Shown: piece by piece, positions 31,068-57,349 of the stretch
How the letters are laid out: the number at the start of each line of letters is the position of its first letter
How positions within the stretch are numbered: the stretch's first letter is position 1
Assembly: GCA_964464905.1 (NCBI GenBank)
Contig: CAYXHC010000002.1
Location: 1 to 59,377, forward strand
Direction of reading: 5' to 3'
Length of the DNA stretch: 59,377 nt
From: an uncultured Lachnospiraceae bacterium
Lineage (GTDB): Bacteria; Bacillota; Clostridia; Oscillospirales; CAG-272
Notes under the pieces: generated by a model
The model's database searches: none
The model's input: the letters and a program-made list of their open reading frames with translations, nothing else
Told to the model about the DNA's origin: nothing
Made by a program: the position numbers and the translations under genes

Positions 31068-31195
31068 AGTATCACCTTCGTTTCGTAAAGTGTGATAAGC
31101 GCTTATCTTGATCCTATTATAGCAAACCTCCTACGTGCTTTCAAGAACCGCAAAGTTTACCGCAAGCGTGTTTTTACAACGGATAGTTGTGCGGC

Positions 31196-31238: not shown

Positions 31239-31697
31239 TTACTTATTTTCGATCGTAAGCGTCAGATTTGCGGGAGTGATACGCCTGAGCATATCATAGA
31301 GAAGCCCTGCCTTTTCCTCCGACGCAAGCGAAACGCTCACGGAAAGGGAACACGCTCCCGCGTCCGCAACAACCGAATAGCCGTTCTTGCCGCATAAAAC
31401 GTCAAGCTTTCGCTTGAGATTTCGCATAGTGAAGGGAAGCTCGCCTGCCGTCATCGTCATAAGCCGGAATCTGCGTTCGTCCTCGGTCTCGGAGCTTTTC
31501 GGCATCACTCCGTATTGCTTTTCGTGCCGCTTCAGCCAATCTCCTTTGGCAGTGTTCACGAAGAAGCCGTCGAGCATTCCGCCCACGTCCTCGTATGCTG
31601 CGGCAATAAATGTATCCACCACGTCTCCGATGGCGCAAAACTCACGTATCTCCGAAAATATGGGCGGTAAATAGGAAAGGTAGCTTTTTTGCATCAA
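31239..31697 (-). CDS. Baseplate-associated protein, DUF2313/XkdU(YmfQ)-like
   Basis: 152 aa with YLPPIFSEIREF...FFVNTAKGDWLKRHEKQYGV...ERRFRL, which matches the family pattern. Follows the baseplate J gene. Confidence 0.6.
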   Translation of the reverse strand: MMQKSYLSYLPPIFSEIREFCAIGDVVDTFIAAAYEDVGGMLDGFFVNTAKGDWLKRHEKQYGVMPKSSETEDERRFRLMTMTAGELPFTMRNLKRKLDVLCGKNGYSVVADAGACSLSVSVSLASEEKAGLLYDMLRRITPANLTLTIENK

Positions 31698-32785
31698 AGC
31701 ACCGTCACCTCCTTGAAAACGGGAACGTGATCCTCACCAAGCGTGATGTTACCGGTAACGTATGTGCCGTCGGAAACGGAATAAAACCTGGTGTTCGTAA
31801 CGTCGTCAACGCAACCGGAAGCGAGGATGTAGCTTTCAAGCTGTGAGATGCGAAGAACGGGAACCTCCGTCACTTCCCATTTTGACGCAACGGAATCGAT
31901 GTAAGTCTTAACCGCATCCGTAATGTAAGGCGCCGCCGTGTCAGCGTCCCATCCGTTGGCAAAGGTAAGCTTCGTTTCAACGGAAACGGGATATTCGGTC
32001 GCCCCCGTAACCGTTACCTTGTGACCGACGGGGGCAACTCCTGCGCCCTCACCGGAGTACATATCGGGATCGAGAAGTGATTTTACAGCAGAGATAACGT
32101 AAGCCGAAGGCGCACCTCCGTGAACTGCCTGAAGCACTATTTTGACAGTTCCGCCTCCGTTCCAGGCTGGATGCACCTTCACACCGCCAACTCCATCAAC
32201 AGCCTTTACGGAGTTGATGTAATCTGCCTTGTTGCCCCCGTAAGAAACGTTTGTCAACGCCGTGGAAACACGCTCTCGAAGTGAGTCGGTGTCTTCTTCG
32301 TCCGCGCCTCTGTAAATGACGGAGATGGCTTTTGATACGGACAGTCCCTCAATATAAGAAAGCGGGATCAGGTCGCCGGAAGTTCTGAGCGCAGGCTTTG
32401 ATCCTGCAGTGTCACACGTCAGCTCGTAAATGTAATAACCTGCTGACGAGTAAACAGCGTCGCCGCGGCTGTATGTGTATTCGTTGAGCGAGAATTTCGC
32501 CCCATCGGGGATCGCAACGTTGAATTGACCGTTTATACGGGTGTACGTTGCAGGCTCACGCTTGATCCCGAGGATCGAAGCGTGATGCAAAAGCGCGGTC
32601 TCGGATGCAGAATCTGGGAAGACGTCGTTGGCTATGCCGTCACAGAGTGAGTATAGCTTGGCGAGCTCCGCTGCCACCGGAGCAACCGCATCGTAAAAGA
32701 TAGAGCCGCATGCCGTGTCAATGTCATCGGGCGCGGCGGCAAGCATATCGCAGAGAATGTTCTCAAAGCTTTTGTTTTCAAACAT
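31694..32785 (-). CDS. Baseplate J-like protein (XkdT-like)
   Basis: 363 aa with an N-terminal GSIFYDAVAPVAAELAKLY...ALLHHASILGIKREPAT pattern. Confidence 0.8.
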   Translation of the reverse strand: MFENKSFENILCDMLAAAPDDIDTACGSIFYDAVAPVAAELAKLYSLCDGIANDVFPDSASETALLHHASILGIKREPATYTRINGQFNVAIPDGAKFSLNEYTYSRGDAVYSSAGYYIYELTCDTAGSKPALRTSGDLIPLSYIEGLSVSKAISVIYRGADEEDTDSLRERVSTALTNVSYGGNKADYINSVKAVDGVGGVKVHPAWNGGGTVKIVLQAVHGGAPSAYVISAVKSLLDPDMYSGEGAGVAPVGHKVTVTGATEYPVSVETKLTFANGWDADTAAPYITDAVKTYIDSVASKWEVTEVPVLRISQLESYILASGCVDDVTNTRFYSVSDGTYVTGNITLGEDHVPVFKEVTVL

Positions 32786-33131
32786 TAAAGACCTCCGTTA
32801 ATGTTTTTTGATTTTCGTGTGTATTCAGATGTACCGTCAGCTTTAGGATACCTTCGTCGAAGACGGCAGATATATCCGATACCTTAAAGTCATCTCCGCA
32901 GCGTTTCTCCACCTCCTCGGTGATCTGCCGTTTGAGCATCGAAACCGCGTAAGGTATGCGCGCGGAATAAAGAATTCTGCGTGATATGCCATAGGATCTG
33001 TCATAAATAGGGTGTTCGCCGCGTTCTGTTTCGAGCATTAAAAATATGTTGAGAAGTCCTGCGTCAATACCTGAGACGGTCCCCGCAAGACGGAATCCGT
33101 CGCCGTCTTTGATCAGTGAATATGTCTTCAT
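32778..33131 (-). CDS. Baseplate wedge protein, XkdS/DUF2634 (gp25-like)
   Basis: 117 aa. Assigned from size and its position between the XkdR-like and baseplate J genes. Confidence 0.5.
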   Translation of the reverse strand: MKTYSLIKDGDGFRLAGTVSGIDAGLLNIFLMLETERGEHPIYDRSYGISRRILYSARIPYAVSMLKRQITEEVEKRCGDDFKVSDISAVFDEGILKLTVHLNTHENQKTLTEVFNV

Positions 33132-33150
33132 TTATATGTGTTCCTTTCAT

Positions 33151-33444
33151 TCAATCACCGATAACACCAACGATAAGATATTTTTCGCCGCCAACGGCAC
33201 GGAACATAACGACCTTCGCTCCTGCTGTAAGCTTGTCGCGGAAGGATACCGTTCCTTCAACACCGTCTACGAGCGCGGCTTCATCACTGCCGGTGACGTG
33301 CTTCGGAACGATGATACGCGGCTCAGTTACGATAAGAGTCGGATCGATGCGAACCGATAAAGGTGAAGTGCTGCTGACGGTTCCGCAGATAATATCGGCT
33401 GAGATTTCGTTTTTATCGATTACGTCTGTTCGTTTGCTTTGCAT
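33151..33444 (-). CDS. XkdR/DUF2577-like baseplate protein
   Basis: 97 aa ending FRAVGGEKYLIVGVIGD, typical of this family. Syntenic position. Confidence 0.5.
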   Translation of the reverse strand: MQSKRTDVIDKNEISADIICGTVSSTSPLSVRIDPTLIVTEPRIIVPKHVTGSDEAALVDGVEGTVSFRDKLTAGAKVVMFRAVGGEKYLIVGVIGD

Positions 33445-33456
33445 AATCAGTCTCCT

Positions 33457-34362
33457 TTACACGGATGAGAGCGTAAGCTTCGCTGATGAACCGTAAAGGC
33501 CGTATATCAACTCCGACTCTTCACATATCATACGCTTTTTTTCGTCACCTATCAGAACATCAACGGCAGCACCGCTGCGGATCGGCATAACGAGATCGAT
33601 AGTCTCACACTTGACAGTCGTAAGCGGAAGAGCAGACGAAGAGAGTATTCCGGTGCCGGTAGCCGTCGCGTTTTCAACGAATGATAAAGTTCCGAGATAT
33701 GACAGATGTCCGTATCTTGCAATTGAGCCGTCATCCCTGAACTGATGATAAACACGCCCGTTTTCAGTAGCTTCTATAAGAGAAACGTCATTGTAAACGT
33801 TTTCGTCAATGCTTTCGGTCACGGTAAATTCACGGCATATATGAGGATATATGGCGATCCCCTGATTAAGCGAATCAGCGTCGGACAGACATATCTTGCC
33901 GAAGTCGTCGTATAAAACGTAGTCGCCATAGCCTGCCAAAGACGTAAGCGACAGCGCATTTCCGATTATGGAAAATAGCTCGCGTCCGTCGTCGATCTGC
34001 GCGCTTATCTTCATTCTTGTGTCAGCTATCACGCCCGTTGGGATCCCGTAGCCGTTACAAAGTATAGTCAGAAGCTCGCCTGCGGTCTTGTCACTGTACA
34101 GTATCGTCGTCTTGTTTTTGAAATATCGCAAAAGATCATAGGCGAGACATTCGTATCCGCTGTTCGTTTTAGAAACCGTGAATACCGTTCCCTTGAAAAT
34201 GCTTTTGCCTTCTCCATAGAATATTACGCTGTCTCCGACAGCCACCTTGTCAAGAGACTTGAAAGTGAATCTGCCCGGATTCAGTCCGCGTCGGGTATTG
34301 TAGCAGGCATCTCCGGACTGAATAACAGGGCTTCCGTTTATATATAGCGCCGATCTTTTCAA
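33457..34362 (-). CDS. XkdQ/YqbQ-like baseplate hub protein (gpD-like)
   Basis: The conserved body carries ECLAYDLLRYFKN...AGELLTILCNGYGI. A TTG start was chosen, overlapping the upstream TGA (TTGA) and following a GAGGTG RBS. The ORF-track ATG at 34473 lies inside the upstream gene. Confidence 0.6.
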   Translation of the reverse strand: MKRSALYINGSPVIQSGDACYNTRRGLNPGRFTFKSLDKVAVGDSVIFYGEGKSIFKGTVFTVSKTNSGYECLAYDLLRYFKNKTTILYSDKTAGELLTILCNGYGIPTGVIADTRMKISAQIDDGRELFSIIGNALSLTSLAGYGDYVLYDDFGKICLSDADSLNQGIAIYPHICREFTVTESIDENVYNDVSLIEATENGRVYHQFRDDGSIARYGHLSYLGTLSFVENATATGTGILSSSALPLTTVKCETIDLVMPIRSGAAVDVLIGDEKKRMICEESELIYGLYGSSAKLTLSSV

Positions 34363-34775
34363 CCTGACACCTCTGCCGTTTTGTAACGACGGGCTTTGAT
34401 AGTTACTGTTACGCCGCCCTCGTGATAAACGCTCATCATCTCTTCCGAAATGACCGTCATGTTTATGTCGCATATAACTCGGTCCTCATCGTCAACTCCC
34501 AAAAGCACGAGCTCAAAGGGAACTGCCAAGCGTGACATAAAGTGATCACTTACAAGATCGGGAGTGACAAGTACGCTGTCACCGTATACGTGTTCGGACG
34601 GAGCATCGGATACCGTAAGCTCAAGAGAAATTTTTACGGGTGCAGCAGGTGTGGCAAAAACGTGATAGCTCCCGTCCGAGATCGTTATGTAGTCAGAACC
34701 TCCTTCGGAAATGACGGATACAGATGACGGTGGCATAGGCATAAGAGTGCCGTCAATGTAAAGATAAAGCTTCAT
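34359..34775 (-). CDS. XkdP-position tail/baseplate protein without a recognisable LysM domain
   Basis: 138 aa. The pattern LPMPPSSVSV...ISLELT...PFELVLLG...MTVISEE...VTVTIKARRYK resembles, from memory, proteins found just upstream of XkdQ in clostridial myophage tails. Confidence 0.4.
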   Translation of the reverse strand: MKLYLYIDGTLMPMPPSSVSVISEGGSDYITISDGSYHVFATPAAPVKISLELTVSDAPSEHVYGDSVLVTPDLVSDHFMSRLAVPFELVLLGVDDEDRVICDINMTVISEEMMSVYHEGGVTVTIKARRYKTAEVSG

Positions 34776-34842
34776 CGTGTCCTCCTTTTACACGCATCGT
34801 GCGTAGAAATAGATATTTAATGATCTTCATAAAGCCTCCGTT

Positions 34843-36036
34843 TTATAGAGATGCAGATATCATAATTCCGTTAGGACGCGAGATGTGTGCATCTGTGACC
34901 GATACAGATACAGCACCGCCTTCATCGGCGGAAACCGAAACCGTAGGCGCAGTTGAAGATATACCGTATCTGCAATAAAGCTCCGAAAGTGAATCAGCAA
35001 TATCCTTTTGCAGATAAGAAACTCCTGCACCATTGGCTCGAACCACGCCAAGATAGCGATCATTGAAAATGCCGTTTATCCTGCGCAGCATTTCATCTTT
35101 CAGTCTCACCTTAAAATTGTCGGCAAGCTTGGTATCCTCGGAGCTGTTATTATCCCTGATAACGTAAGCGTCGCCGTTTGTGTAGGCAAGAACGAGCCTG
35201 TTGTAAGGCACCGTGGCTGCAGCATGCTCGTTGTCAAAGGCGGCGGGATCAAAGGAGCCTTCGTATCTTTCTCCTACAGCGCTTCGGTAAAATGGAAGAC
35301 TCGCCAGAAGACCGGCAATATAATATATCGCTCCTCTGTCACCGCCGCAGCAGGCAACCGACGTGATCGCAGCGGAGCCGGGTGCTGAGATCTCAGCCGC
35401 AGTGACTCCCTTTATAGTTCCGCCGTTACCGCGAATATCTTCGATGAAATCCGAAAATACGGCAACGATCGGCGCACTCGTTTCACCGGATACGATAATA
35501 TCAGACGTTACCGTAGACAATGTGTCAAGACACTCTTTGTAGTTGAATTCATTTATGATCATATCCTGCCCGCCCGTGAAAGGAATGCCAGACGTAATAA
35601 ATATCTCTGAATCGTAAAATATAACGTAATCGTTATCGGCAGGACGGCAGCCGCTCGGTACGCTCTGATCGTCAACGATAGCACCGTCAACGTAAGTCGT
35701 GATCAAAAAAACGCCGTCGGTTTCCTTGACACTGACGGTTATTCTGTTGCCGGAGGTGCCCTTGTATTTTGCGCGCCCGATAACTGATATGGCGTATTCG
35801 CCTCCGTGAGGGCGGCAACAGTAAACGCGCGAGGCTCTTTTCAGTATATCGGAAAGAGCGTCTCTCGCAGTATCGCTGAATAAACGCTGACTTTTAAGCG
35901 CGAAAGGATCGGTGAATTCTATGATCTCACCCGAAGGACCCCATCCGGTGTCAAGAACGACCGAAACGGTTCCGTTTCGTGCGTTATGTCCAATAATAAG
36001 ATCCGATACTTTTGTTTTCGATCCGTAAATATCCAT
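34843..36036 (-). CDS. Contractile tail sheath protein
   Basis: Sheath-like blocks: AKYKGTSGNRITVSV, YYIAGLLASLPFYRS, GDAYVIRDNNS and FKVRLKDEMLRRI...DRYLG. ATG at 36036 follows GAGGTG; the ORF-track TTG is at 36051. Confidence 0.7.
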   Translation of the reverse strand: MDIYGSKTKVSDLIIGHNARNGTVSVVLDTGWGPSGEIIEFTDPFALKSQRLFSDTARDALSDILKRASRVYCCRPHGGEYAISVIGRAKYKGTSGNRITVSVKETDGVFLITTYVDGAIVDDQSVPSGCRPADNDYVIFYDSEIFITSGIPFTGGQDMIINEFNYKECLDTLSTVTSDIIVSGETSAPIVAVFSDFIEDIRGNGGTIKGVTAAEISAPGSAAITSVACCGGDRGAIYYIAGLLASLPFYRSAVGERYEGSFDPAAFDNEHAAATVPYNRLVLAYTNGDAYVIRDNNSSEDTKLADNFKVRLKDEMLRRINGIFNDRYLGVVRANGAGVSYLQKDIADSLSELYCRYGISSTAPTVSVSADEGGAVSVSVTDAHISRPNGIMISASL

Positions 36037-36043
36037 TTTCACC

Positions 36044-36460
36044 TCAGCCAAGCGTTATTTTTACGTCAACGGACGCCATCGTGATGGGACTTTCGCCGTT
36101 GCTGCCGTATTCGAAAAAGAGCGACGGAAACGAATAAGCGGCTGTTACATCAAAATACCGTCCGCAATGACGGCACTCGTACTTCTGTACGGTCAGTTCC
36201 CGACCGCCAAGCGTGATCCGTCCGATAGCATTGAGTATACCTCCATCGTCACCGAGCATCATATCCGGTGAAAAATATCGGATCCTGAAAGACACCGTGC
36301 ATTCACCGCTGCCATCGGAGTATATTTTATCCGTCGAAAGAAAAAGCGTCCCCTCTGGAGCATCGGCAGGTATTGCACCTGCCGATGTGATAACGCTTGA
36401 TAACGTTGAAAGAGAATTTTTTAAAGCACTGAAAAAGCCGTAATCAGCGTCTCTTTTCAC
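36044..36460 (-). CDS. Hypothetical neck / tail-terminator candidate
   Basis: 138 aa. GTG start overlaps the upstream stop (GTGA) and follows AGGAGG. Assigned by position only, between the adaptor and the sheath. Confidence 0.35.
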   Translation of the reverse strand: MKRDADYGFFSALKNSLSTLSSVITSAGAIPADAPEGTLFLSTDKIYSDGSGECTVSFRIRYFSPDMMLGDDGGILNAIGRITLGGRELTVQKYECRHCGRYFDVTAAYSFPSLFFEYGSNGESPITMASVDVKITLG

Positions 36461-36837
36461 CAGCGTATCCTCCTGTATTTTTTCGCTCTGTCAAGACCGC
36501 GGCAGCGCATTTTGCCACACGCTGAAAGCTTGCGTTCAAGCTCCGTCGTGCCGGATGCGTATTTGAGCGAAAGATCACCGTCGCTTTTCGAGGTGACGGC
36601 TCCCTTTGCACCACCGTCGCCAAGAAGGGACGCTTCTGCATAATCGGCAGCCGAAATATCGGCAACAGACTCCAGAAGCTCGTCGGGCAATGTCTCTATC
36701 GCGCAAATAAGCAGTATCTCATCCGTAACGGAATCAATGATGGTATCAAGTATGCCCAGATCACATTCGCGGGGAGAGATGTGAAGGGAGATAAGCCGTT
36801 TTTCTATCCCCGCTTTTATCTTTCCGCGATAGTTCAT
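36457..36837 (-). CDS. Head-tail adaptor (gp6-like connector) candidate
   Basis: 126 aa, immediately after the capsid gene (TGATG overlap). Has the acidic helical N-terminus typical of adaptors. Confidence 0.45.
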   Translation of the reverse strand: MNYRGKIKAGIEKRLISLHISPRECDLGILDTIIDSVTDEILLICAIETLPDELLESVADISAADYAEASLLGDGGAKGAVTSKSDGDLSLKYASGTTELERKLSACGKMRCRGLDRAKKYRRIRW

Positions 36838-37874
36838 CAGCCGAGAGATATGATACGCGCAACGGGAATGAGCTTTTCGTCGATAACATCGCCGTTTTCG
36901 CTGGTGGCAAGCTCCCAGTTGGCGCCGTCGGAAAGTTCATCGTTGGTGGGGGAAAGCGTCGCCTGAGAGGACTTCACGTAGTCGAAGCCGAAGGGGTGAA
37001 GTACCTTGCGCTGACGGGAATAGAGAATGTCACAGCCGCCTTCCTCAGCGGGAGAACGATGCATCTCGTAGGGCACCTTTGCGCCGATGTTTTCGTAGAA
37101 GAAAGCACCCTCGCCAAGCGCGTAGGTGGTGTATACCGTGTTGCCGTCGCCGTCCTTTGATACGGGGAGACTGTCCGTAATAATGACGGACTTGCCGTTC
37201 CATGTGCCGATCGAAAGATCACGGGTGATACCGTCTTTGTCAGTGTAGGTGAGATAATTCATGAGCTGAAGATTCTCAAGGTTGGTTGCAACGGCGGAGT
37301 GCATAAGTACGGCACGGAACTTGCCCTTTGCAGAGCCGCAAGCGCGCTGGATCGCCGCGTTGAGAGAGGTGGCGCTGATCTGGGGGATCTCCTCGCCGGT
37401 AATATCGTAGGTGTGGGCGTCAACGAAATCAGCCTTCGCTTCATCGCCGCCATCGGCAAACATACCGCTGAGAATGGAGAGAAGAGTTGCTTCGTCAACC
37501 TCCTCCCAGTATTCCGCAACCTGCTCGGCAACGGTGTCCATATAGTCAACGCCCGCAATGTCACAAGCAAAATCGCGCTCGCTCCATGCGTTTGCGCGGC
37601 CGATCACCACGGCGCCGAACTCGTAACACGGAGTTTTCTGAGGAGTGATGTCACCAACACCGTCATAGTTCTGAGCAACGCCTGAAATCGCGCCGTAAAG
37701 AGGTACCTTGGCGTAAGCAGCATTGCCTGCACCGCGGAAAAGGGAACGGATCTCGCTGTTGCCGACGAAAACTCGGCGAGCAAGCAGCTCTCTCGTCTTC
37801 AAGGTAGGTACACGGCCAACGTAATCGCCGAATACTGCCGAATCAAAAATTTTAGAATCAAACTGTCCCTGCAT
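36837..37874 (-). CDS. Major capsid protein
   Basis: About 345 aa, following the scaffold gene. The start at 37874 (MQGQFD...) follows a GGAGA RBS; the ORF-track start at 37898 lacks one. Confidence 0.7.
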   Translation of the reverse strand: MQGQFDSKIFDSAVFGDYVGRVPTLKTRELLARRVFVGNSEIRSLFRGAGNAAYAKVPLYGAISGVAQNYDGVGDITPQKTPCYEFGAVVIGRANAWSERDFACDIAGVDYMDTVAEQVAEYWEEVDEATLLSILSGMFADGGDEAKADFVDAHTYDITGEEIPQISATSLNAAIQRACGSAKGKFRAVLMHSAVATNLENLQLMNYLTYTDKDGITRDLSIGTWNGKSVIITDSLPVSKDGDGNTVYTTYALGEGAFFYENIGAKVPYEMHRSPAEEGGCDILYSRQRKVLHPFGFDYVKSSQATLSPTNDELSDGANWELATSENGDVIDEKLIPVARIISLG

Positions 37875-37962
37875 ATATTTCTCCATTCTGCCGTTCATAA
37901 CGGCATAAAATTTATTTAGTATGTAATTAATTTCGCGGTCGCATTATCAAGCGTTCCGCAGA

Positions 37963-38382
37963 TCATTTGTACAGTCTCATATATTCGCTGTATGAAAGCT
38001 CTCCCGTATCGGAGATATCATCAGAAGCCTCAACGGGAGAGATCCCCACGAAGGTGTATACCGTCGTCTCGTTCTTCGTCTCGTCGCTCCCGAAAAGAAA
38101 GGGCATACTATCTTTAAGAGATGACACCGCCTCGGAAAGACCTGACGGTGTCCCGTCAAAGTCCTCACCGTCCCATTCGTAGCCAAGCACAGCAGAGGCA
38201 GCGCGGGTGTTTCGTGCACCGGCGCGCTCCAGCGCGCTTTCAACGGCAAAGCGGTATTTATCCTCAAGACGTCGTCTTTCGTAATCAGAGGTCACGGTGT
38301 CTAACTCCTCGGATAAGGCTGCAAGTATAATTTCTGCGTTGGCAGGCTCAATGCCAAGATCAATCAAAAAATCAATATTCAT
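37963..38382 (-). CDS. Capsid scaffolding protein
   Basis: About 139 aa, acidic and helical, lying between the portal and capsid genes. ATG at 38382 follows AAAGGAG. Confidence 0.5.
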   Translation of the reverse strand: MNIDFLIDLGIEPANAEIILAALSEELDTVTSDYERRRLEDKYRFAVESALERAGARNTRAASAVLGYEWDGEDFDGTPSGLSEAVSSLKDSMPFLFGSDETKNETTVYTFVGISPVEASDDISDTGELSYSEYMRLYK

Positions 38383-38428
38383 TAATAGGCTCCTTTTAGT
38401 GAAAATCAACTTGTATCACGGTGTAATT

Positions 38429-39769
38429 TTATGTAAGTCCGAGTCGTTCCAGCTCGTCGTCAACGTCGTGAACGAGAGGGTGAGACGCAACGAGGGTGCG
38501 TTTTGATAAAATATCAGCGGATGAATTGAGCGCTCCGACAGCCGCAGCCTCATTCACTAAAAGATCGCGGTTGAAGCGTATCTCGGCTTCGGAACAGCGA
38601 AAATCTCCTTTACCCGTGTAGAAAAGATAAGAGCGGATGTAGCCTATCCATTCGTCGATCGCGCATCCAAGCTCTGCTTCAAAGCCGTTTGCGTCAAGAT
38701 CAATGTCGGAATATATCGCCAGAATGTTCATCCGGTTAGGATTGCTTCCGAGACGCGAATCGTTGGAATCAAAGCCACGGCAGCATTCCACCAAAGCCTC
38801 GGAAAGCTGATTCTTCAGCGTTTCGTAGTTCGTTGCATCCACCTTTATCGAAAGAGTATCAACGCCGCCCTCGCCGCCTCCATCGGAGCGCACCTTCACA
38901 GCTCCGTAAGCGGCAAGATTGCGTCTGAATTCACCCAGATCCTCACCGTCAAAATTCTTCAGTACCAGAACGGTGTTTCTGCTGTTTTCCGACATATTGT
39001 CGCAAAAATCGGATTGAAGCTCGTTGAGTGCATCCTGAATACATTTTGCCCGTCTTATCATCGGGATCGCTCCGGCGTTATACTTTACCGGAATAACGGG
39101 AACACGGTCCCATCTGTAACACTCACCATCGTTATCCCTGAAATGATATGGCGTGTCAGCAACGAAACGAAGCTCGCCACCGCGGTATTCATATTCTTCG
39201 GTTCCGTTGCAGGTGTAAACGAAAACGCGCTTTTTTACGCATCGCTTTTTACCCTCGTAGTATTCTTCGGGGGAAACGCGCAAAAGCATATCGAGCTTCG
39301 TGTGTGCTGCGTCGTGCCAGAATGGCAAGCAGTTGGCCGAGTCGAATAAATAAAGCTTCAGTTCGCCCTTCTCATCGATGTAAGGGTGAAGCCAGGCAAT
39401 ACCGCATCCCATAGACTCGGTGGCGGCAAGACGCCAGAGCAGCTGCCCCTCCTTGCCGAAATATTTTTTTATTTCAGCGGAAAAAGCCTTGTCGGGCACG
39501 TTGCGTGTGAACGGCTTTCCCAATGAGTAATTTACCTTCTGGTCTATTATCCTCCCGTATTGATTGTTTACAATACGGGTGCAGGGAAGCTTGTCAAGAT
39601 TTATAACGTCGCCGTCAGCTCCGATAGCGGTACGATGACGTCGCAGAATGTCGTGTTCGCCGCGATAATATCGCTTTGCGTCACGAGCTTCCTTTCTTGC
39701 GTGGGATGCAAGAAAGGAAGCAGTTTCCGCCGAAAGCATACTTAAATAAGAATTTGTTATGTGTTTCAT
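38429..39769 (-). CDS. Portal protein (SPP1 gp6-like)
   Basis: 446 aa. An N-terminal YYRGEHDILRR...NNQYGRIIDQKVNYSLGKPF pattern is typical of this portal family. Confidence 0.8.
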   Translation of the reverse strand: MKHITNSYLSMLSAETASFLASHARKEARDAKRYYRGEHDILRRHRTAIGADGDVINLDKLPCTRIVNNQYGRIIDQKVNYSLGKPFTRNVPDKAFSAEIKKYFGKEGQLLWRLAATESMGCGIAWLHPYIDEKGELKLYLFDSANCLPFWHDAAHTKLDMLLRVSPEEYYEGKKRCVKKRVFVYTCNGTEEYEYRGGELRFVADTPYHFRDNDGECYRWDRVPVIPVKYNAGAIPMIRRAKCIQDALNELQSDFCDNMSENSRNTVLVLKNFDGEDLGEFRRNLAAYGAVKVRSDGGGEGGVDTLSIKVDATNYETLKNQLSEALVECCRGFDSNDSRLGSNPNRMNILAIYSDIDLDANGFEAELGCAIDEWIGYIRSYLFYTGKGDFRCSEAEIRFNRDLLVNEAAAVGALNSSADILSKRTLVASHPLVHDVDDELERLGLT

Positions 39770-39841
39770 TAAACCGCAGTTCCTCCTGTCGCGGTAAGAT
39801 TGCGTATTTCTGATGCTCGGAAAAGAGATAACGTAAAACGG

Positions 39842-41077
39842 TCAAAAACTGAAGTTCATACCGCTCGTCGCATCGGAAACGGCGTAACGCATCGCATCCA
39901 TCAAATGATCGTTTTTTCCGACCGGACGGTTGACGGCGTTGCCGCTGCTGTCCGTGTCCCAAACGTAACCGCGTATCTCTCCGATAAAATTTTTACAAAC
40001 AGGCGATATTACGATGTGGTTGCGTGCCACGGTGTCTATTCCGGAAAGAATGCTGCCATGCCTCTTCGACGAGGGCACGATGCGCCTTATCCCCATGGAT
40101 CGAAGCTCGTCAACAGATTTCGGCTCTGCTGAATCGGCAACGATGCGGCATCTCCCGTAGCCGCGCCCCTTGATAAGCGCCGCAAGACGATCGTTGGTCA
40201 GTCCCCGTTCGTATATTTCGTCGTAAACGAAAAGCTCCCGCCTTTCCGTAGACAAAAGACCGCAAAAAAGAGCGGTAGGGTCGTTGGTGTAGCCGAAATC
40301 AAGACCAAGCACCGGCAAAAAGCCATGCTTTACAAGAATATCGCGGTCGAATTCCCGTATTTCGTACGAAGGATAAACGAGACCGCTGACAGCACCCCAT
40401 TTGCCGAGTCCCGCCGTTCGGTAACGTTCGGGACGTTCACGCTTCATGGTCTCGAAAAGCGTAATGTCAGCCTCGTCAAGAAATTCGTTGGTCTTGTAGG
40501 TCGTCGTCATCCGTAAAACGTCGGGCGACTCGGGCGCATCAAAGAAGCGCCGCTTAAGCCAGTGCCCTTCGTTCCAAGGGTTGAAAGTTACCGTCAATTG
40601 CTTGAAATATCCGGTAGGTACGTACCCTCTTATAAGCTCGTCTATCATATCAAAGTCAGCCTCGTCTGAGATCTCAAAAGCCTCCTCGCACCAAAGCCAG
40701 CATAAAACTCCCCTTGAGACCGAAATGGACGTAAGCTTCATCGGATCGTCGAGTCCTTTGAAAAAGATTTTCTGCCCCGTGATTTTTCTCGTTATTTCGA
40801 GAGGGGATGTTTTGAATTCGAATTCTTTCAGCACACCGAGCCGCTCAGCCGCCCATTTAAGCTCCGTGTAGCACGAACGCTCAAGAGACGCGTAAGTGCG
40901 TCGTACCACCAAAAGATTTGCAAGCGGATATTTCAGTAAATGATAAATATACCAAAGCGCCGTCGTTTTCGACTTCTTCGAAGCACGAGAGCCCTTGATA
41001 ACGCGGTATCTTCCGCGAAAATTCCAGAATCTTTCGTAGCCTCTCCCAACGGTGCGGTATAGGTCAATCTTCTTCAT
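39842..41077 (-). CDS. Terminase large subunit (PBSX-type)
   Basis: Walker A-like KGSRASKKSKTTA and a C-terminal nuclease region. ATG at 41077 follows GAGGAAA; the ORF-track TTG is at 41125. Confidence 0.85.
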   Translation of the reverse strand: MKKIDLYRTVGRGYERFWNFRGRYRVIKGSRASKKSKTTALWYIYHLLKYPLANLLVVRRTYASLERSCYTELKWAAERLGVLKEFEFKTSPLEITRKITGQKIFFKGLDDPMKLTSISVSRGVLCWLWCEEAFEISDEADFDMIDELIRGYVPTGYFKQLTVTFNPWNEGHWLKRRFFDAPESPDVLRMTTTYKTNEFLDEADITLFETMKRERPERYRTAGLGKWGAVSGLVYPSYEIREFDRDILVKHGFLPVLGLDFGYTNDPTALFCGLLSTERRELFVYDEIYERGLTNDRLAALIKGRGYGRCRIVADSAEPKSVDELRSMGIRRIVPSSKRHGSILSGIDTVARNHIVISPVCKNFIGEIRGYVWDTDSSGNAVNRPVGKNDHLMDAMRYAVSDATSGMNFSF

Positions 41078-41552
41078 CAGAGTCTGTTTCCTCAGTAATG
41101 TCGGCAAGGAACTTCTCCTCGCCAACGAAAATTACACTATCGTGATCGTCACCCTCGCCGTTGAAAATGCCGTATCGACGCGCCAGCATTTCCGCTGCAC
41201 TCATCCGTTCTTTGACAGACGCGGATTTGTTTATAACGCGCGCGCACCGCTCTGTCTTACCTTCCTTGCCGGTCCTTTGCTCAACGACTACCACGGGGTC
41301 GTGAACGTCTCCGCGCATAACGGACGTCAGCATTTGCAGAATCTCTGTAGGATCTGCAACTGCACTCGGCCGATCAGCCTTAAGTTCAACGCCTTGTCCG
41401 CAGAGCTTCCCAAGCAGAGCGGAAGCGGCGCCGAGCCGTTTGTAACCGGCGTCTTTTGCTGCCTCTTCGGGGTCCATCCCCGATCTGTATAATTCCAAAA
41501 AACGTCGTTGTCTTTCGTTCAAATCGTTAATGATTCCTCCGTTCTCACCCAT
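41064..41552 (-). CDS. Terminase small subunit
   Basis: 162 aa with N-terminal LNERQRRFLELYRSGMDPEEAAKDAGY. Immediately upstream of the large subunit. Confidence 0.6.
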   Translation of the reverse strand: MGENGGIINDLNERQRRFLELYRSGMDPEEAAKDAGYKRLGAASALLGKLCGQGVELKADRPSAVADPTEILQMLTSVMRGDVHDPVVVVEQRTGKEGKTERCARVINKSASVKERMSAAEMLARRYGIFNGEGDDHDSVIFVGEEKFLADITEETDSDEED

Positions 41553-41636
41553 AGGGCGTGAATAAACAAAATGAACACAAACACAAAGTTCGTGTGTGAG
41601 CCTTATTCCAAATACAGCCTCAAATAAGGAAAAAGC

Positions 41637-41933
41637 TCAAACGATCATTGTTCGGGCGGTGTACTTTTCACAGCGCCGCCGTGCATACTGTTCATCATAT
41701 TCTCCAAGGGCGAAAGCAACCTGCTGCCAGGTCATACCGTAAAGATAACGGAGCGTTAAAGCAGAACGGTCGAAATGATCGGTAACGCTCGAAATGCGAT
41801 CGTGAAAATCCTCATATCGTCGGGATAACTCGTCTGTACGCTTTTTCATATCGTTACGTAAGCGAAGTATACGCGCGTCATCCTCTCCGTCCGAGGTAAG
41901 CGACGCCTTTCTCAAAAGCTCGAGCTCGCACAT
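41637..41933 (-). CDS. Sigma-70 region-4-like HTH protein (candidate late-gene activator)
   Basis: 98 aa with LTLRYLYGMTWQQVAFALG, which resembles a sigma region 4 / RinA-ArpU-type HTH. Positioned upstream of terS. Confidence 0.45.
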   Translation of the reverse strand: MCELELLRKASLTSDGEDDARILRLRNDMKKRTDELSRRYEDFHDRISSVTDHFDRSALTLRYLYGMTWQQVAFALGEYDEQYARRRCEKYTARTMIV

Positions 41934-41985
41934 CTCTCTTTCGAGAAGACGAAGCTCGCTGCGGATGCCTTTTACGGTACGTAGG

Positions 41986-42270
41986 TTAATAGCGATCGCC
42001 CGATCTCATGACTTTTCCGGAAAACTCGGAAATTGCTTCCGTAACGGACGAAAATCCGCATATATCGAGGATCTCGGAAATGGAAAAGTTTTCGATGCAT
42101 TCGTCGCAAACGATTCCGTCGCCGTCTCCGTCGGGATTATATATGTAGCTTTGACCGTGAGAAATGATCTCACCGCAAAGCGAACAGCGAAGTGAGCCTA
42201 CGCTCCCTTCGTCAATGTCGAGCGGGCACCCGTCTATGTGCCCGAAATCGTAATCGCAAATGTCACACAT
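41986..42270 (-). CDS. Cys-rich (CxxC x3) small protein, first gene of the block
   Basis: 94 aa with CDIC, CSLC and CDEC pairs. A GGTGGTGA RBS lies 6 nt upstream. Confidence 0.5.
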   Translation of the reverse strand: MCDICDYDFGHIDGCPLDIDEGSVGSLRCSLCGEIISHGQSYIYNPDGDGDGIVCDECIENFSISEILDICGFSSVTEAISEFSGKVMRSGDRY

Positions 42271-42288
42271 CAGATTTCACCACCAATC

Positions 42289-42302
42289 AGAACAAATGTT
42301 CG
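42289..42302. promoter_or_regulatory. LexA-type SOS box 1
   Basis: AGAACAAATGTTCG (GAAC-N4-GTTC), 19 nt upstream of the ATG at 42270. Confidence 0.7.
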
Positions 42303-42317
42303 TATTTTGAGCGATGT

Positions 42318-42342
42318 AAAAACGCGCCGGGAGCGCGCGTTT
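42318..42342 (-). terminator. Terminator-like hairpin within the leader of the phage-like operon
   Basis: The minus strand reads AAACGCGC(7-nt loop)GCGCGTTT followed by TTTAC, about 10-35 nt downstream of the predicted transcription start. Confidence 0.5.
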
Positions 42343-42357
42343 CCACATCGTGCCTAT

Positions 42358-42386
42358 ATTATACCATAAATCGCCAAATAATTCAA
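42358..42386 (-). promoter_or_regulatory. Extended -10 sigma-A promoter of the phage-like operon
   Basis: The minus strand reads TTGAAT, 17-nt spacer, TATAAT, with the last three spacer bases TGG giving TGgTATAAT. Confidence 0.7.
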
Positions 42387-42395
42387 TAGTCAAAA

Positions 42396-42409
42396 AGAAC
42401 AAATGTTCG
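42396..42409. promoter_or_regulatory. LexA-type SOS box 2
   Basis: AGAACAAATGTTCG, identical to box 1 and 10 nt upstream of the -35. Its right half is part of the perfect 18-bp palindrome GTTCGTAAATTTACGAAC (42406-42423). Confidence 0.7.
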
Positions 42410-42418
42410 TAAATTTAC

Positions 42419-42430
42419 GAACATACGTAT
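42419..42430. promoter_or_regulatory. Degenerate third SOS-box-like element
   Basis: GAACATACGTAT: the left half-site is intact and the right half is degenerate. Confidence 0.3.
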
Positions 42431-42462
42431 ATTACATGTGTGAAAACTGAATAAAACCTTTG

Positions 42463-42491
42463 TTGACAAGGAAAAACACATATTTTATAAT
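42463..42491 (+). promoter_or_regulatory. Sigma-A promoter of nfo
   Basis: TTGACA, 17-nt spacer, TATAAT. Confidence 0.65.
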
Positions 42492-42573
42492 AGACTGAGA
42501 CGAGAGGCTAAAAGCCTGTCGCAATTTATTAATTTTATGAAAATCGCACAAAAATGATAGTATCGGAGAAATT

Positions 42574-43437
42574 ATGAGCAAAAAATTAAGGCTTGGCGCA
42601 AATCTGTCCGTGTCTGGCGGATATGCAAAAATGATAGAAACATCACATAGTATAGACGGAAACGTAATTCAGTGCTTCATAAGAAATCCGCGCGGCGGAG
42701 ATATGCGTACGATAAACGAGGAAGACGAAGAAAAGGCGCTCCGTCTCCTTGATGAATACGAAATAGAGCATAGCTCTCTTATCGCCCACGCCCCATATAC
42801 AATGAATCCGTGCTCAGCAAGGCAAGAGGTCAGGGAGTTCACTATACGCACTATGAAAGAGGACTTTTTGTACCTCGAACGTATACCGGGTATCCTTTAT
42901 AATTTCCACCCAGGATCACACACGGGTCAGGGCGTAGACACAGGCATCGAACATACGGCAAAATGCCTTGCTAAAACCATGTGGAGAGAAATGAGAACGA
43001 AGGTGCTCATAGAAACCATGGCGGGAAAGGGAAGTGAGATAGGAAAGACCTTTGAAGAAATACGAGCGATCATCGACGGAGCCGAAGAGGCGAATCCCGA
43101 AATAGAGGGATTGCTTGGCGTATGCCTCGATACCTGCCACGTAAACGACGGAGGTTACGATATCGTCGGTGACCTTGACAGGGTCGTTGACGAGTTCGAC
43201 CGCATTATCGGACTCGATAGACTTCACGCTATACACTTAAACGACAGTAAGAATCCAAAAGGATCCCATAAGGACCGTCACGAGGTGATCGGCAGCGGCA
43301 TGATAGGACTCGAAGCGCTCGTACGCGTTATGAATCACCCAAAGCTTTCCCACCTCCCCTTCTGCCTTGAAACTCCCAACGAGGTAGATGGGTATAAAGC
43401 AGAGATAGCGCTTCTTCGTTCCCGCTTTGAAGGATGA
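42574..43437 (+). CDS. nfo: Endonuclease IV (AP endonuclease family 2)
   Basis: 287 aa with HAPYTMN, NFHPGSH, ETMAGKGSE, LDTCH and HLNDSKNPKGSHKDRH metal-ligand motifs. Confidence 0.9.
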   Translation: MSKKLRLGANLSVSGGYAKMIETSHSIDGNVIQCFIRNPRGGDMRTINEEDEEKALRLLDEYEIEHSSLIAHAPYTMNPCSARQEVREFTIRTMKEDFLYLERIPGILYNFHPGSHTGQGVDTGIEHTAKCLAKTMWREMRTKVLIETMAGKGSEIGKTFEEIRAIIDGAEEANPEIEGLLGVCLDTCHVNDGGYDIVGDLDRVVDEFDRIIGLDRLHAIHLNDSKNPKGSHKDRHEVIGSGMIGLEALVRVMNHPKLSHLPFCLETPNEVDGYKAEIALLRSRFEG

Positions 43438-52920: not shown

Positions 52921-53080
52921 ATGCCAAAGGAGAAAACTCTCTTTTTGTATTTATGCCTTGATTTTTATGTTTTCTTCAGTTATAATAAATCTGTGTATGT
53001 AAATTTGTCGGCAAAATTGTTGCCGATCAGCTTTGAATAGTCGGAAGAGTTCCGGTATATCATTTGCTTGGAGAATTGTA

Positions 53081-55057
53081 ATGGAGAATAGATCGATAAG
53101 AACGCGCAGCTATAATATCCGCTGGTTGCTTGTGTGGTATGATTGCATCGTTTTTGCGTTCGTAAGCTTTTTAATATTATTTTTTTACAAAGGTCTCGAC
53201 AGACCCGATACGGAGATTGCATTAAACCACGCGCTTCTTGCGTTCGTGTGCGTTTTCTCTTTCCGCTTAATAACGAATATATACCGTCAGATCTGGAGAT
53301 ACGGCGGTATTCAGTCTTATCTTAAGTTAATCCTGTCGGATACGTGTGCGTTTGCCGTATATCTCATAATCTCTCTTTCGGAAGTCTTCCCCATAGACAA
53401 GATCACGACTATTCGCGCAACCGCGCTTTTCTGTGTGAATCTTCTCTTTGCTCTTGCAATGAGAATGCTTTACCGTTACGTTTATAAATTCAGCAATACG
53501 GAAACCTTTTACGGTAGAGTACTTTGCTGGTTAATGCTCATATTCGGCCGTCTTGATATCAGAAGAGGTGCGATGGCAAGCAGCCAGAAGATAAAGATAG
53601 CAGTCGTTGGCGCAGGGCGCGTAGGCGTTGGTCTTGCAGAAGAGCTTATGAATAATCCGGCGGCATCTTACTATCCTCGCTGCTTTATCGACATAAACCG
53701 GGAAAAGATCGGTAAACGTATCTATGGTATACCGGTACTCTCCGAAAGTGAGGCAAATATTGAATCCCTGAAGGAATTCGAGGTTCAGGAGGTCGTTTTT
53801 GCTATACCTCAGATGGATATGAACGTGAAGCAGAAGCTTTACGAGTATTATCGCACTGCAGGATATAAGATCAAATCTTACGACTTTCCGCTGATGCAGA
53901 CGGCAACAAACGGGAAACGATCCATCCGTGAATTTGATATTGAGGAACTTTTGTTCCGTAAGCCCATAGTTATCTCCGACGAGGAAACGAATTCATATTA
54001 TAAGGGGAAACGTATTCTAATCACCGGAGGCGGAGGATCCATCGGATCCGAGCTTTGCCGTCAGATCGCAAAAATGGAGCCGGAAAGGCTCATTGTGCTC
54101 GATGTGTACGAAAACGGCGCCTACGACGTTCAACAGGAGCTGAGAACGGCATACGGTTCAAAGTTGGATATGTATGTTGAGATCGTGTCCGTTTGCAATA
54201 AGCAGGGACTTGAAAGAGTCTTTGCCGAGCATAGACCTCAGGTGGTGCTTAATGCTGCCGCGCATAAGCATGTTCCGCTTATGGAAAAGAACTGCATCGA
54301 AGCCGTTGAAAATAATATTTTCGGCACACTCAACACGGTCGAGCTTTCCGAAAAGTACGGAGTCGAACGTTTGATGATGGTCAGCACCGATAAGGCAGTG
54401 AATCCCACGAACGTTATGGGTGCAACGAAACGAATGTGTGAACTGATCGTTCAGGCACACAGTCAAAGCGGTACGTCCACCACCTTCAGCGCCACGAGAT
54501 TCGGAAATGTGCTCGGTTCCGCCGGTTCGGTGATACCGCTCTTCAAGCGCCAGATTGCAGGCGGAGGCCCGATCACTCTTACCGATAAGCGCATAATCCG
54601 TTACTTTATGACTATTCCCGAGGCATCTCAACTTGTGCTTCAGTCAGGCGCAATGGCGGAAAACGGAGAACTTTTCGTTCTCGATATGGGTAAGCCGGTT
54701 AAGATACTTGAGCTTGCGGAAAATATGATCCGCCTCAGTGGTCTTGAACCTTATCGCGATATCAATATTATCGAAACTGGTCTTCGCCCCGGCGAAAAGC
54801 TTTACGAGGAGCTGCTCGTAAAGACTGAGGAGCTTGACAAGACGGCAAACAAGATGATATTCGTCGAACGCGACGCACCGTTAACGATGGACGAACTCGA
54901 AGAGAAGCTGGATATGCTCAGATCTGCTGTTTCCACCGGAAGTGACGATATCGTTCGGGATACGCTCCGCCGCGTCGTTCCTACGTTCAAAGCTCCCGAA
55001 GAAATAAATGCAAAAGCGAATGAAGCCAGCGAAATGAGAGAAGCAAGCGCAGGTTGA
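53081..55057 (+). CDS. Membrane-anchored polysaccharide biosynthesis NDP-sugar 4,6-dehydratase (CapD/PglF/WbpM family)
   Basis: MENRS... follows a GGAGA RBS. N-terminal TM helices, then two Rossmann regions (AVVGAGRVG and ITGGGGSIGSEL). Confidence 0.85.
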   Translation: MENRSIRTRSYNIRWLLVWYDCIVFAFVSFLILFFYKGLDRPDTEIALNHALLAFVCVFSFRLITNIYRQIWRYGGIQSYLKLILSDTCAFAVYLIISLSEVFPIDKITTIRATALFCVNLLFALAMRMLYRYVYKFSNTETFYGRVLCWLMLIFGRLDIRRGAMASSQKIKIAVVGAGRVGVGLAEELMNNPAASYYPRCFIDINREKIGKRIYGIPVLSESEANIESLKEFEVQEVVFAIPQMDMNVKQKLYEYYRTAGYKIKSYDFPLMQTATNGKRSIREFDIEELLFRKPIVISDEETNSYYKGKRILITGGGGSIGSELCRQIAKMEPERLIVLDVYENGAYDVQQELRTAYGSKLDMYVEIVSVCNKQGLERVFAEHRPQVVLNAAAHKHVPLMEKNCIEAVENNIFGTLNTVELSEKYGVERLMMVSTDKAVNPTNVMGATKRMCELIVQAHSQSGTSTTFSATRFGNVLGSAGSVIPLFKRQIAGGGPITLTDKRIIRYFMTIPEASQLVLQSGAMAENGELFVLDMGKPVKILELAENMIRLSGLEPYRDINIIETGLRPGEKLYEELLVKTEELDKTANKMIFVERDAPLTMDELEEKLDMLRSAVSTGSDDIVRDTLRRVVPTFKAPEEINAKANEASEMREASAG

Positions 55058-57314: not shown

Positions 57315-57349
57315 AAAAACACACGCCCCTGCGTGTGTTTTTTTGTTTT
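57314..57349 (+). terminator. Terminator after fbp
   Basis: AAAAAAACACACGC(4-nt loop)GCGTGTGTTTTTTT. Confidence 0.85.

Follow-up and report, generated by a model that had tools for sequence, protein, structure and literature searches.

The promoter and its flanking LexA-type boxes

The window analysed here (the whole 59,377-nucleotide stretch, from contig CAYXHC010000002.1 of an uncultured Lachnospiraceae bacterium) carries on its minus strand a phage-derived structural operon (terS to a Gp48-like gene, 31239..41552), preceded by two small genes and separated from the divergent nfo gene by a short region which is predicted to control the whole element. A strong sigma-A-type promoter was located in this region, consisting of a -35 hexamer (TTGAAT, 42386..42381), a 17-nt spacer and an extended -10 element (TGGTATAAT, 42366..42358); it scored 10/12 plus the TG in a consensus scan, and transcription is predicted to start near A42351, based on the usual distance of 7 nt. 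Two copies of one 14-mer, CGAACATTTGTTCT, flank the promoter on the minus strand and resemble LexA operators. The upstream copy (box U, 42409..42396, approximately -58..-45) has its 3' edge 9 nt upstream of the -35 hexamer in a minus-strand reading of 42100-42700, and the downstream copy (box D, 42302..42289) lies at about +50..+63 if A42351 is taken as the start. A leader RNA hairpin (42350..42312, minus strand), made up of an A-run, a GC stem, a 7-nt loop and a T-run at 42322..42318, is positioned between promoter and box D. Box D begins 15 nt past this T-run and finishes 18 nt before the ATG of the first gene at 42270, which is preceded by a ribosome-binding site (GGTGGTG, 42284..42278; 42268..42284 together with the ATG, minus strand) that is conserved in alignments. 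An initial annotation of the sequence had described a promoter of the form TTGAAT-17-TGgTATAAT at 42358-42386 and two identical boxes at 42396-42409 and 42289-42302, the second at about +50, and all of these were found to be present on the minus strand.

The region was compared across the window and 12 distinct loci of related uncultured Clostridia (L082, L162-L164, L168-L172 and L176-L178), all but L082 being found via homologues of the 98- and 94-amino-acid proteins encoded by the two small genes; L171 is cut off upstream and hence carries no box U information. All 13 loci have the same module order, namely box U, the -35 and -10 elements, a GC stem with T5-6, box D, GGTGGTG and the ATG of a protein beginning MCD(I/V)C(D/E). 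Box U keeps its offset in 11 of the 12 other loci (9 nt to the -35 hexamer; 7 nt in L178), mostly as CGAACTTTTGTTCG, and box D in all 12, mostly as CGAACATTTGTTCA. The extended -10 element is the same in 10 of the 11 other loci covering it (L178 has TGATATAAT), and the 17-nt spacer holds in all loci covering the promoter. The gap from the T-run to box D is 13-16 nt in all 13 loci, and 17-18 nt separate box D from the ATG in each of them. In a comparison of eight species, no segments were more conserved than the two boxes (mean column majority of 94.6% for box U and 92% for box D), compared to 67% for the linker.

The closest genome, L082 (a Eubacteriales metagenome-assembled genome whose Nfo protein is 85% identical), carries the same element at the same site with both boxes, the promoter and the hairpin. 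Blocks running from box U to the ribosome-binding site are 78-100% identical between the window and L082, compared to 48% for the spacer between the two divergent promoters. Synonymous sites of the neighbouring genes are mostly saturated (proportion of synonymous differences, pS, about 0.7-0.8), with lower values for the capsid and DUF711 genes and for L082. The boxes accompany the element: 79 other nfo-like loci have neither, and no LexA boxes were found upstream of terL in 80 viral TerL relatives from IMG/VR (approximately 56% identical). These relatives are ordinary phages and are otherwise uninformative on the element.

The sequence CGAAC-N4-GTTCG is the LexA operator consensus of B. subtilis and Gram-positive bacteria (PMC4551915; PMC8270828). 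Both window boxes match it at 13 of 14 positions with an AT-rich centre, and the CGAACTTTTGTTCG of the relatives matches at 14 of 14. On the plus strand the boxes read AGAACAAATGTTCG, which is one base off AGAACAAATGTTTG, the operator of C. difficile recA employed in LexA binding work (PMC4234289). The 59-kb window contains two occurrences of CGAAC-N4-GTTC compared to 0.56 expected, and since at least two were found in 15 of 100 shuffles the bare count is not significant; significance comes instead from the identity of the two 14-mers, from their position on either side of a near-consensus promoter and, most of all, from how well they are conserved in the 12 other loci. To our knowledge, CGAAC-N4-GTTCG is used by no other known Firmicutes regulator. 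Exact copies of GAAC-N4-GTTC in 198 kb of family loci are almost confined to the positions of box U and box D, with the exception of one at 53945 in the window and one extra box upstream in L169. Assignment of the boxes to the Firmicutes SOS type, as originally proposed, is therefore supported by the operator match and by the highest conservation in the regulatory region. No SOS gene was found within the 59-kb window, the remainder of which is housekeeping in nature, and when RecA and LexA from E. coli were used as tblastn queries on all the loci retrieved, one spirochaete LexA was returned and nothing else.

Several further box-like sequences were recorded. The third perfect GAAC-N4-GTTC in the window, GGAACTTTTGTTCC at 53945-53956, is within a polysaccharide-biosynthesis gene (53033-55057) and is probably there by chance. 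Two additional LexA-like boxes, TGAACGGCTGTTTT and TGAACAAGTGTTCT, are present upstream in L169 (169-321), the second in the leader of the divergent transcript, and SOS control of the divergent gene may have been acquired in that lineage. The initial annotation had also described an 18-bp palindrome (GTTCGTAAATTTACGAAC, 42422..42405) merging with the box nearby and a degenerate third box with a right half only (TATACGTATGTTCG, 42431..42418), both in minus-strand reading. These sequences are indeed present but are not conserved in the other loci beyond part of them in L082; the GTTCG half-site of the third box is retained in L082 alone, and L172 has a different extra CGAAC. They are lineage-specific and probably dispensable, most likely representing an accessory weak half-site or an incidental feature. 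An inverted repeat around the -35 hexamer (TTTTGCC-N13-GGCAAAA) was considered as a second operator and rejected, as it is present in some loci only.

The architecture was also scanned as a pattern (box, 10 nt, TTGAA, 15 nt, TGGTATAAT) against JGI metagenomes and IMG/VR. Three unrelated SOS-type promoters were identified in the JGI metagenomes, with no match in IMG/VR. These metagenomic promoters (L165/L167, near 949-999 and 2217-2267, and L166, 6633-6683) have a LexA box approximately 10 nt upstream of the -35; one of them carries another box across the start and directs expression of a small CxxC zinc-ribbon protein, and the other precedes an integrase-like gene. This suggests that placing a box upstream in this way is common among Firmicutes SOS promoters. 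LexA boxes upstream of the -35 or just past the start are known from yolC/yolD of SPbeta (PMC8270828), and LexA sites downstream of the start from promoter P1 of GIL01 (PMC4551915).

As nfo encodes a DNA-repair enzyme, deoxyribonuclease IV (42574-43437, plus strand; TIGR00587, 260 bits compared to a cutoff of 130), and box U is situated between both divergent promoters, the boxes could in principle serve SOS regulation of nfo (endonuclease IV), with the phage-like operon merely adjoining. We regard this as very improbable: the centre of box U lies some 95 nt ahead of the predicted start of nfo and outside the nfo promoter (a perfect TTGACA-17-TATAAT in the consensus scan, 42463-42491, plus strand), box D is inside the leader of the element, none of 79 other nfo-like loci has an upstream box or the element, and both L178 and L169 retain the two boxes together with the element. 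The nfo promoter and part of its 5' leader (TTTTTGTGCGATTT; 42463-42573, plus strand) are themselves conserved across the family, with the DNA-repair gene permanently paired with the element.

The spacing of the two operators raises a further possibility, namely that two LexA dimers bring them together in a loop of approximately 107 bp, trapping the promoter in the manner of the gal repressosome (operators at about -60 and +54). The operators do flank the promoter without overlapping it, and in 11 loci the distance from the start of one to that of the other stays at 105-108 bp in spite of small internal indels, equivalent to about 10.0-10.3 helical turns; in L178, however, the spacing is 142 bp, or about 13.5 turns, which is out of phase, and we know of no LexA tetramerisation or looping. 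In addition, no cooperativity between adjacent LexA sites was seen in the GIL01 study (PMC4551915). Looping is thus considered distinctly unlikely.

Conservation of the leader hairpin

RNA folding extended the leader hairpin to a stem of 16 pairs (42350..42310). The 85-nt leader folded with an energy of -30.5 kcal/mol (z = -3.8), none of 200 shuffles folding as well, and a terminator scan likewise flagged the hairpin. With A42351 as the start, the hairpin would begin at approximately +2 and the U-run would occupy +30..+34. RNAalifold returned the same 15-pair helix from 9 and from 11 sequences; 95% of cells were paired, compared to 33-61% when the partners were slid. The covariation score was above that of all 500 shuffles, with compensatory G-C/A-U changes at two pairs. 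An Rfam scan of 41500-43000 (E<=1) gave no match.

The 3' U-run (T5-6) is invariant, while its 5' partners switch between A and G, and G-U pairs are possible solely in the minus-strand RNA. This asymmetry is as predicted for the U-tract of a terminator and is not predicted by a generic stem or a DNA palindrome. In L178, the most divergent locus, the GC stem and T5 are kept exactly 15 nt before box D, without an A-run and at an internal position, despite an extra 5' hairpin. The A-run/GC-stem/T-run form is also shared with gene-end terminators of the same genome, such as AAAAAAACACACGC..GCGTGTGTTTTTTT at 57312-57345. On the basis of the GC-rich stem, the short loop and a U-run of at least five, all conserved in 13 loci, we infer that the leader hairpin is an intrinsic terminator. 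The hairpin with TTTTT at 42318-42342 in the initial annotation was thus found to be real and of low fold energy, and its RNA structure is conserved, the U-run being invariant.

Firmicutes 5' stem-loops can protect transcripts against RNases such as RNase J1, and the hairpin could act mainly as such a 5'-terminal stabiliser of the mRNA against 5'-dependent RNases, with LexA alone setting the rate of transcription. It starts 1-4 nt from the predicted 5' end in 12 of the 13 loci, the full stem of 15-16 pairs consumes the U-run by pairing it with the upstream A-run, and L178 additionally has a separate 5'-terminal hairpin. A stabiliser, however, does not need U5-6, and the 3' U-run shows no variation and is never exchanged for other types of pair, with A and G alternating among its partners; nor would a stabiliser account for the internal GC stem and T5 of L178 without an A-run, for a form which is the same as that of the real terminators of the genome, or for the conserved distance from T-run to box D. 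A role mainly in stabilisation is possible, although we do not favour it, and the stabiliser and terminator roles are compatible with each other.

The operon and its chromosomal site

The first gene of the operon (41986..42270, minus strand) encodes a Cys-rich protein of 94 amino acids (MCDICDYDF...) with invariant or near-invariant Cys and His residues, which is probably a two-zinc finger. No match was found for this protein in Pfam, PHROG or NCBIfam, and its AF2 model (predicted local distance difference test, pLDDT, 71) had no significant match in PDB. Its homologues are confined to the element family, with a ratio of nonsynonymous to synonymous divergence (dN/dS) of about 0.09-0.14; as a single query the protein found itself only, and a profile of nine locus-derived homologues was used instead.

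The second gene (41637..41933, minus strand), just upstream of terS, encodes a 98-amino-acid protein matching PHROG 36 ('transcriptional regulator', 4.8e-8), with weak, below-cutoff Pfam matches to DUF1492 and Sigma70_r4_2. Its AF2 model (pLDDT 83) had sigma region-4 (-35-binding) domains as the top PDB matches (probability 1.0, root-mean-square deviation 1.7 A, E about 0.2), and the protein is a putative late activator of the RinA/ArpU/DUF1492 kind with a sigma-70 region-4-like fold. No match was obtained for the two regulator genes in a blastn search against phages. The reading frame of the 98-amino-acid regulator runs on upstream of its ATG (41934-41987, minus strand; …VKGIRSELRLLERE-MCELELL) and there matches the N-terminus (MKGIRCELRLL…) of a 92%-identical homologue; as the position of the homologue's start codon reads GTA in the window, the window regulator is probably 14 residues shorter or has an unusual start.

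A second conserved stem-loop is present between the regulator gene and terS (41596..41638, minus strand), with the loop core GAGGCUG, which is contained within UUGAGGCUGU in most loci. The core is invariant in 12 of the 13 loci and the stem-loop is absent from L178. The stems are wholly different among loci (GCGGT/ACCGC, GGGAT/ATCCC, CGGAC/GUCCG, CGGAAA/UUUCCG and CCUUAUU/AAUAAGG), and since the stem differs between loci while the loop core stays, the structure covaries; a fixed-column covariation count failed as the stem register shifts between loci, and the sequences were folded singly. The stem-loop had no Rfam match and is not followed by a U-run in several loci. It may be an RNA site recognised by a regulator, a place of processing or a standby site for ribosomes. 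The possibility of a late sigma-A promoter ahead of terS was rejected, as none is conserved and the stem-loop is too near the ribosome-binding site in several loci.

These two genes and the second stem-loop bear on another explanation, in which the leader terminator is efficient by itself and read-through requires antitermination or activation by the Zn-finger protein, the sigma-region-4-like regulator or a host factor, so that loss of LexA is necessary but insufficient. Phage late operons often use cascades of this kind (lambda Q and N, HK022 put). The leader is indeed followed immediately by two small, conserved genes of regulator type under purifying selection, and the stem-loop upstream of terS could be a protein site or a site modifying RNA polymerase. 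We nevertheless think this explanation rather unlikely, as a competing antiterminator fold could not be accommodated with a hairpin starting at about +2, no similarity of the Zn-finger protein to Q, Ogr or Com, or to any protein of known structure, was detected, and the candidate factors are encoded downstream of the very terminator to be overcome.

The structural operon (31239..41552, minus strand) has the same gene order in the relatives. It comprises terS, terL, an SPP1-type portal, scaffold, major capsid, adaptor and a 138-amino-acid gene, followed by sheath, tube, YqbQ-like, XkdR-like (DUF2577), sheath initiator, baseplate J and Gp48-like genes. No tape-measure, tail-fibre, lysis, integrase or replication genes were found in it. 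Contractile-tail modules (sheath, tube, YqbQ-like) without tape-measure, chaperone or tail fibre were seen in four lineages (window, 31239-36051; L169, 6740-10250; L176, 16242-20288; L177, 16218-20300). Between the window and L169 the tail proteins are 25-42% identical (59% for a partial match of baseplate J), compared to 63-76% for terL, portal and capsid, which suggests module exchange or relaxed constraint in the tail. A head-only form of the element (terS, terL, portal, scaffold, capsid and two small genes), with intact open reading frames and the same bounding host genes, is present in L163, L164, L168 and L172/L173; tail and lysis functions of these loci, if any, must be encoded elsewhere or borrowed. 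The large terminase of L169 is split into two open reading frames (1760-2989; 201 + 203 amino acids), reflecting either a frameshift (pseudogene) or an assembly error.

The element occupies the same chromosomal site throughout the family. The nfo/MBL flank was found in every locus for which the upstream flank is available, and a host DUF711 gene (28550-29911 in the window) forms the far boundary in the window, L163, L164, L168, L172 and L173. In the comparison of the window with L082, where dS is unsaturated, element genes have dS values of 0.68-1.30 and dN/dS values of 0.06-0.21, and nfo and MBL have values of 1.28-1.58 and 0.06-0.08, respectively; in deeper comparisons, element and host genes are similar in amino acid divergence. 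The common site, the dN/dS values and the host-like dS indicate that the element has been vertically inherited, has co-diverged with its hosts and is under purifying selection. The host-domesticated status suggested in the initial annotation is thereby backed independently. With gene transfer agents (GTAs) and other domesticated elements it shares a fixed locus, purifying selection and the lack of an integrase, replication or lysogeny module, the XRE-family gene of the window (see below) being a caveat to the last.

That the element is a decaying prophage remnant, its boxes being relics or bound by a non-LexA regulator and without current function, is very unlikely in view of these data. Tape-measure, tail-fibre, lysis, integrase and replication genes are missing, the whole tail module has been lost in some relatives and TerL is split in L169; decay is, however, difficult to reconcile with intact open reading frames, dN/dS values of 0.06-0.2 and host-like dS at the same locus across species, or with regulatory blocks which are far better conserved than adjacent non-coding DNA.

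It had also been proposed that no repressor encoded by the element intervenes between LexA and the operon. This stands for the head-only versions (L163, L164, L168 and L172), in which no repressor or helix-turn-helix (HTH) gene was found, and the divergent neighbour of the promoter is nfo and not an xre-type repressor as in PBSX-type elements. It is qualified by the window itself, which carries an XRE-family gene at the distal end of the element: a 356-amino-acid protein (29997-31067, minus strand) in which an XRE-type HTH is joined to a long C-terminal domain of helical character, a layout similar to that of RNPP/AimR proteins, with a weak match to the RstR-family HTH. The gene separates the tail module from DUF711, is preceded by a TTGAAA-17-TGnTATAAT promoter of its own (region 29997-31144) and was found in the window only, being absent from the head-only relatives. 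It could conceivably act as an extra regulator, which is a caveat on the repressor-free reading. A similar HTH_3 protein of 389 amino acids is encoded at 19559-20728.

A proposed LexA-controlled switch and its relation to known systems

Taken together, it is likely that this region controls a phage-derived capsid(-tail) operon, passed on vertically, through direct repression by host LexA combined with a leader terminator, and DNA damage probably switches on the capsid/tail particles directly. As read from the sequence, LexA at box U would abut the -35 hexamer and cover the upstream contact zone of the polymerase (alpha subunit C-terminal domain/UP element), reducing initiation. The first 35 nt or so of any transcript would fold into the hairpin with U5-6, acting as an intrinsic terminator before box D. 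RNA polymerase stalls with its active site about 13-15 bp ahead of a bound protein. As the end of the U-run is 13-16 nt away from box D in all loci, it is proposed that LexA at box D stalls escaped polymerase with its active site on the U-tract, such that leaky transcripts would be terminated and released; the action of LexA at two levels would amount to a double lock on a potentially lethal operon.

Upon DNA damage, RecA-stimulated cleavage of LexA would free both operators and initiation would rise. Unobstructed polymerase could then read past a moderate terminator into the Zn-finger and sigma-region-4-like regulator genes, and the latter regulator would presumably boost the genes from terS to capsid. 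The formed hairpin, at the extreme 5' end of the mRNA, may also stabilise it.

A number of observations weigh against this reading. Neither operator (centres at -52 and +56) overlaps the core -35/-10/+1 region, which is the usual mode of repression by LexA, and the 142-bp spacing of L178 means that a need for cooperative looping is not conserved. The hairpin covaries modestly, with double changes at two pairs only, a number which 89 of 500 shuffles reach. The upper stem has just 5-7 GC-rich pairs with a loop of 7-8 nt and 5 U, so the efficiency of intrinsic termination is uncertain, and the 5'-terminal position of the hairpin fits a pure mRNA stabiliser equally well. Finally, the suggested roadblock geometry is built on a general value for the stall distance of the polymerase.

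A close regulatory parallel is GIL01, a tectivirus of B. thuringiensis, which like the element lacks a CI-type repressor of its own; host LexA, its lysogeny repressor, acts at CGAAC-N4-GTTCG boxes, as is proposed for the element. GIL01 also has LexA sites downstream of the start and an accessory half-site beside a full box, as in the window (PMC4551915). Unlike the element, GIL01 is an autonomously replicating phage and needs the co-factor gp7 and the LexA-like activator gp6 (PMC6182141). Its boxes (dinBox1/dinBox1b) are adjacent at about +10..+43 and not split around the promoter, and no leader terminator has been described for it. No homologue of gp7 or gp6 was recognised in the element, where the 94-amino-acid protein had no family or structure match and no direct comparison with gp7 or gp6 was made.

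The tail genes of the window (sheath, YqbQ/XkdQ-like, XkdR-like (DUF2577), XkdS-like sheath initiator and baseplate J) resemble those of PBSX, which also has a sigma-like late regulator ahead of its terminase genes and is induced by damage, as is predicted for the element. However, PBSX, an SOS-inducible, GTA-like defective myovirus of B. subtilis, has its own Xre repressor and its induction is proposed to proceed via RecA (PMC8270828). The element, unlike PBSX, has no genes for tape-measure, fibre or lysis and occupies a constant position between nfo and DUF711.

GTAs such as RcGTA and FpGTA are likewise small, head-centred, phage-derived clusters which are vertically inherited and without replication or integration functions, with tail and lysis genes perhaps elsewhere. 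LexA affects GTA production in alphaproteobacteria. In Rhodobacter this effect has been reported as indirect; in the element, unlike RcGTA, the operators are on the structural operon's own promoter. FpGTA of gut Ruminococcaceae/Oscillospiraceae consists of a head operon and a separate tail/lysis operon, with no regulation described (PMC12946183). The hosts of FpGTA are gut Clostridia (PMC12946183), as are those of the element.

Intrinsic-terminator leader attenuators and protein roadblocks to elongation (such as those of CodY/CcpA in B. subtilis) share with the window a GC stem and U-run in the 5' leader and a repressor site downstream of the start; unlike the attenuators, the window has no alternative antiterminator fold, leader peptide or ligand-binding domain. 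We know of no described natural system with a fixed 13-16-nt coupling of a terminator U-run to a LexA operator.

Direct control of phage-derived elements by LexA is known from GIL01, the SOS-inducible PBSX and GTAs, and the principle is therefore not new. What is new is a compact and deeply conserved module, operator-promoter-terminator-operator with fixed spacings, which suggests a repressor that both blocks initiation and enforces termination, and its location directly on a capsid or capsid-tail operon whose divergence has followed that of its hosts, uncultured gut Clostridia. GTA-like DNA packaging has lately been shown to be common in related gut families (PMC12946183). A further new point is the prediction that SOS-inducing antibiotics should turn on particle production in these bacteria; the 150-bp region is, in addition, a ready-made reporter. 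We tentatively suggest that the promoter could be the master switch of an unrecognised GTA-like capsid family in uncultured gut Clostridia, in which LexA is used twice, at the promoter and as a positioned roadblock on the U-tract (a 'roadblock-coupled terminator'). If so, basal expression would be near zero, release would be sharp and SOS-dependent, and gene transfer by capsids would be triggered directly in these commensals by drugs that damage DNA.

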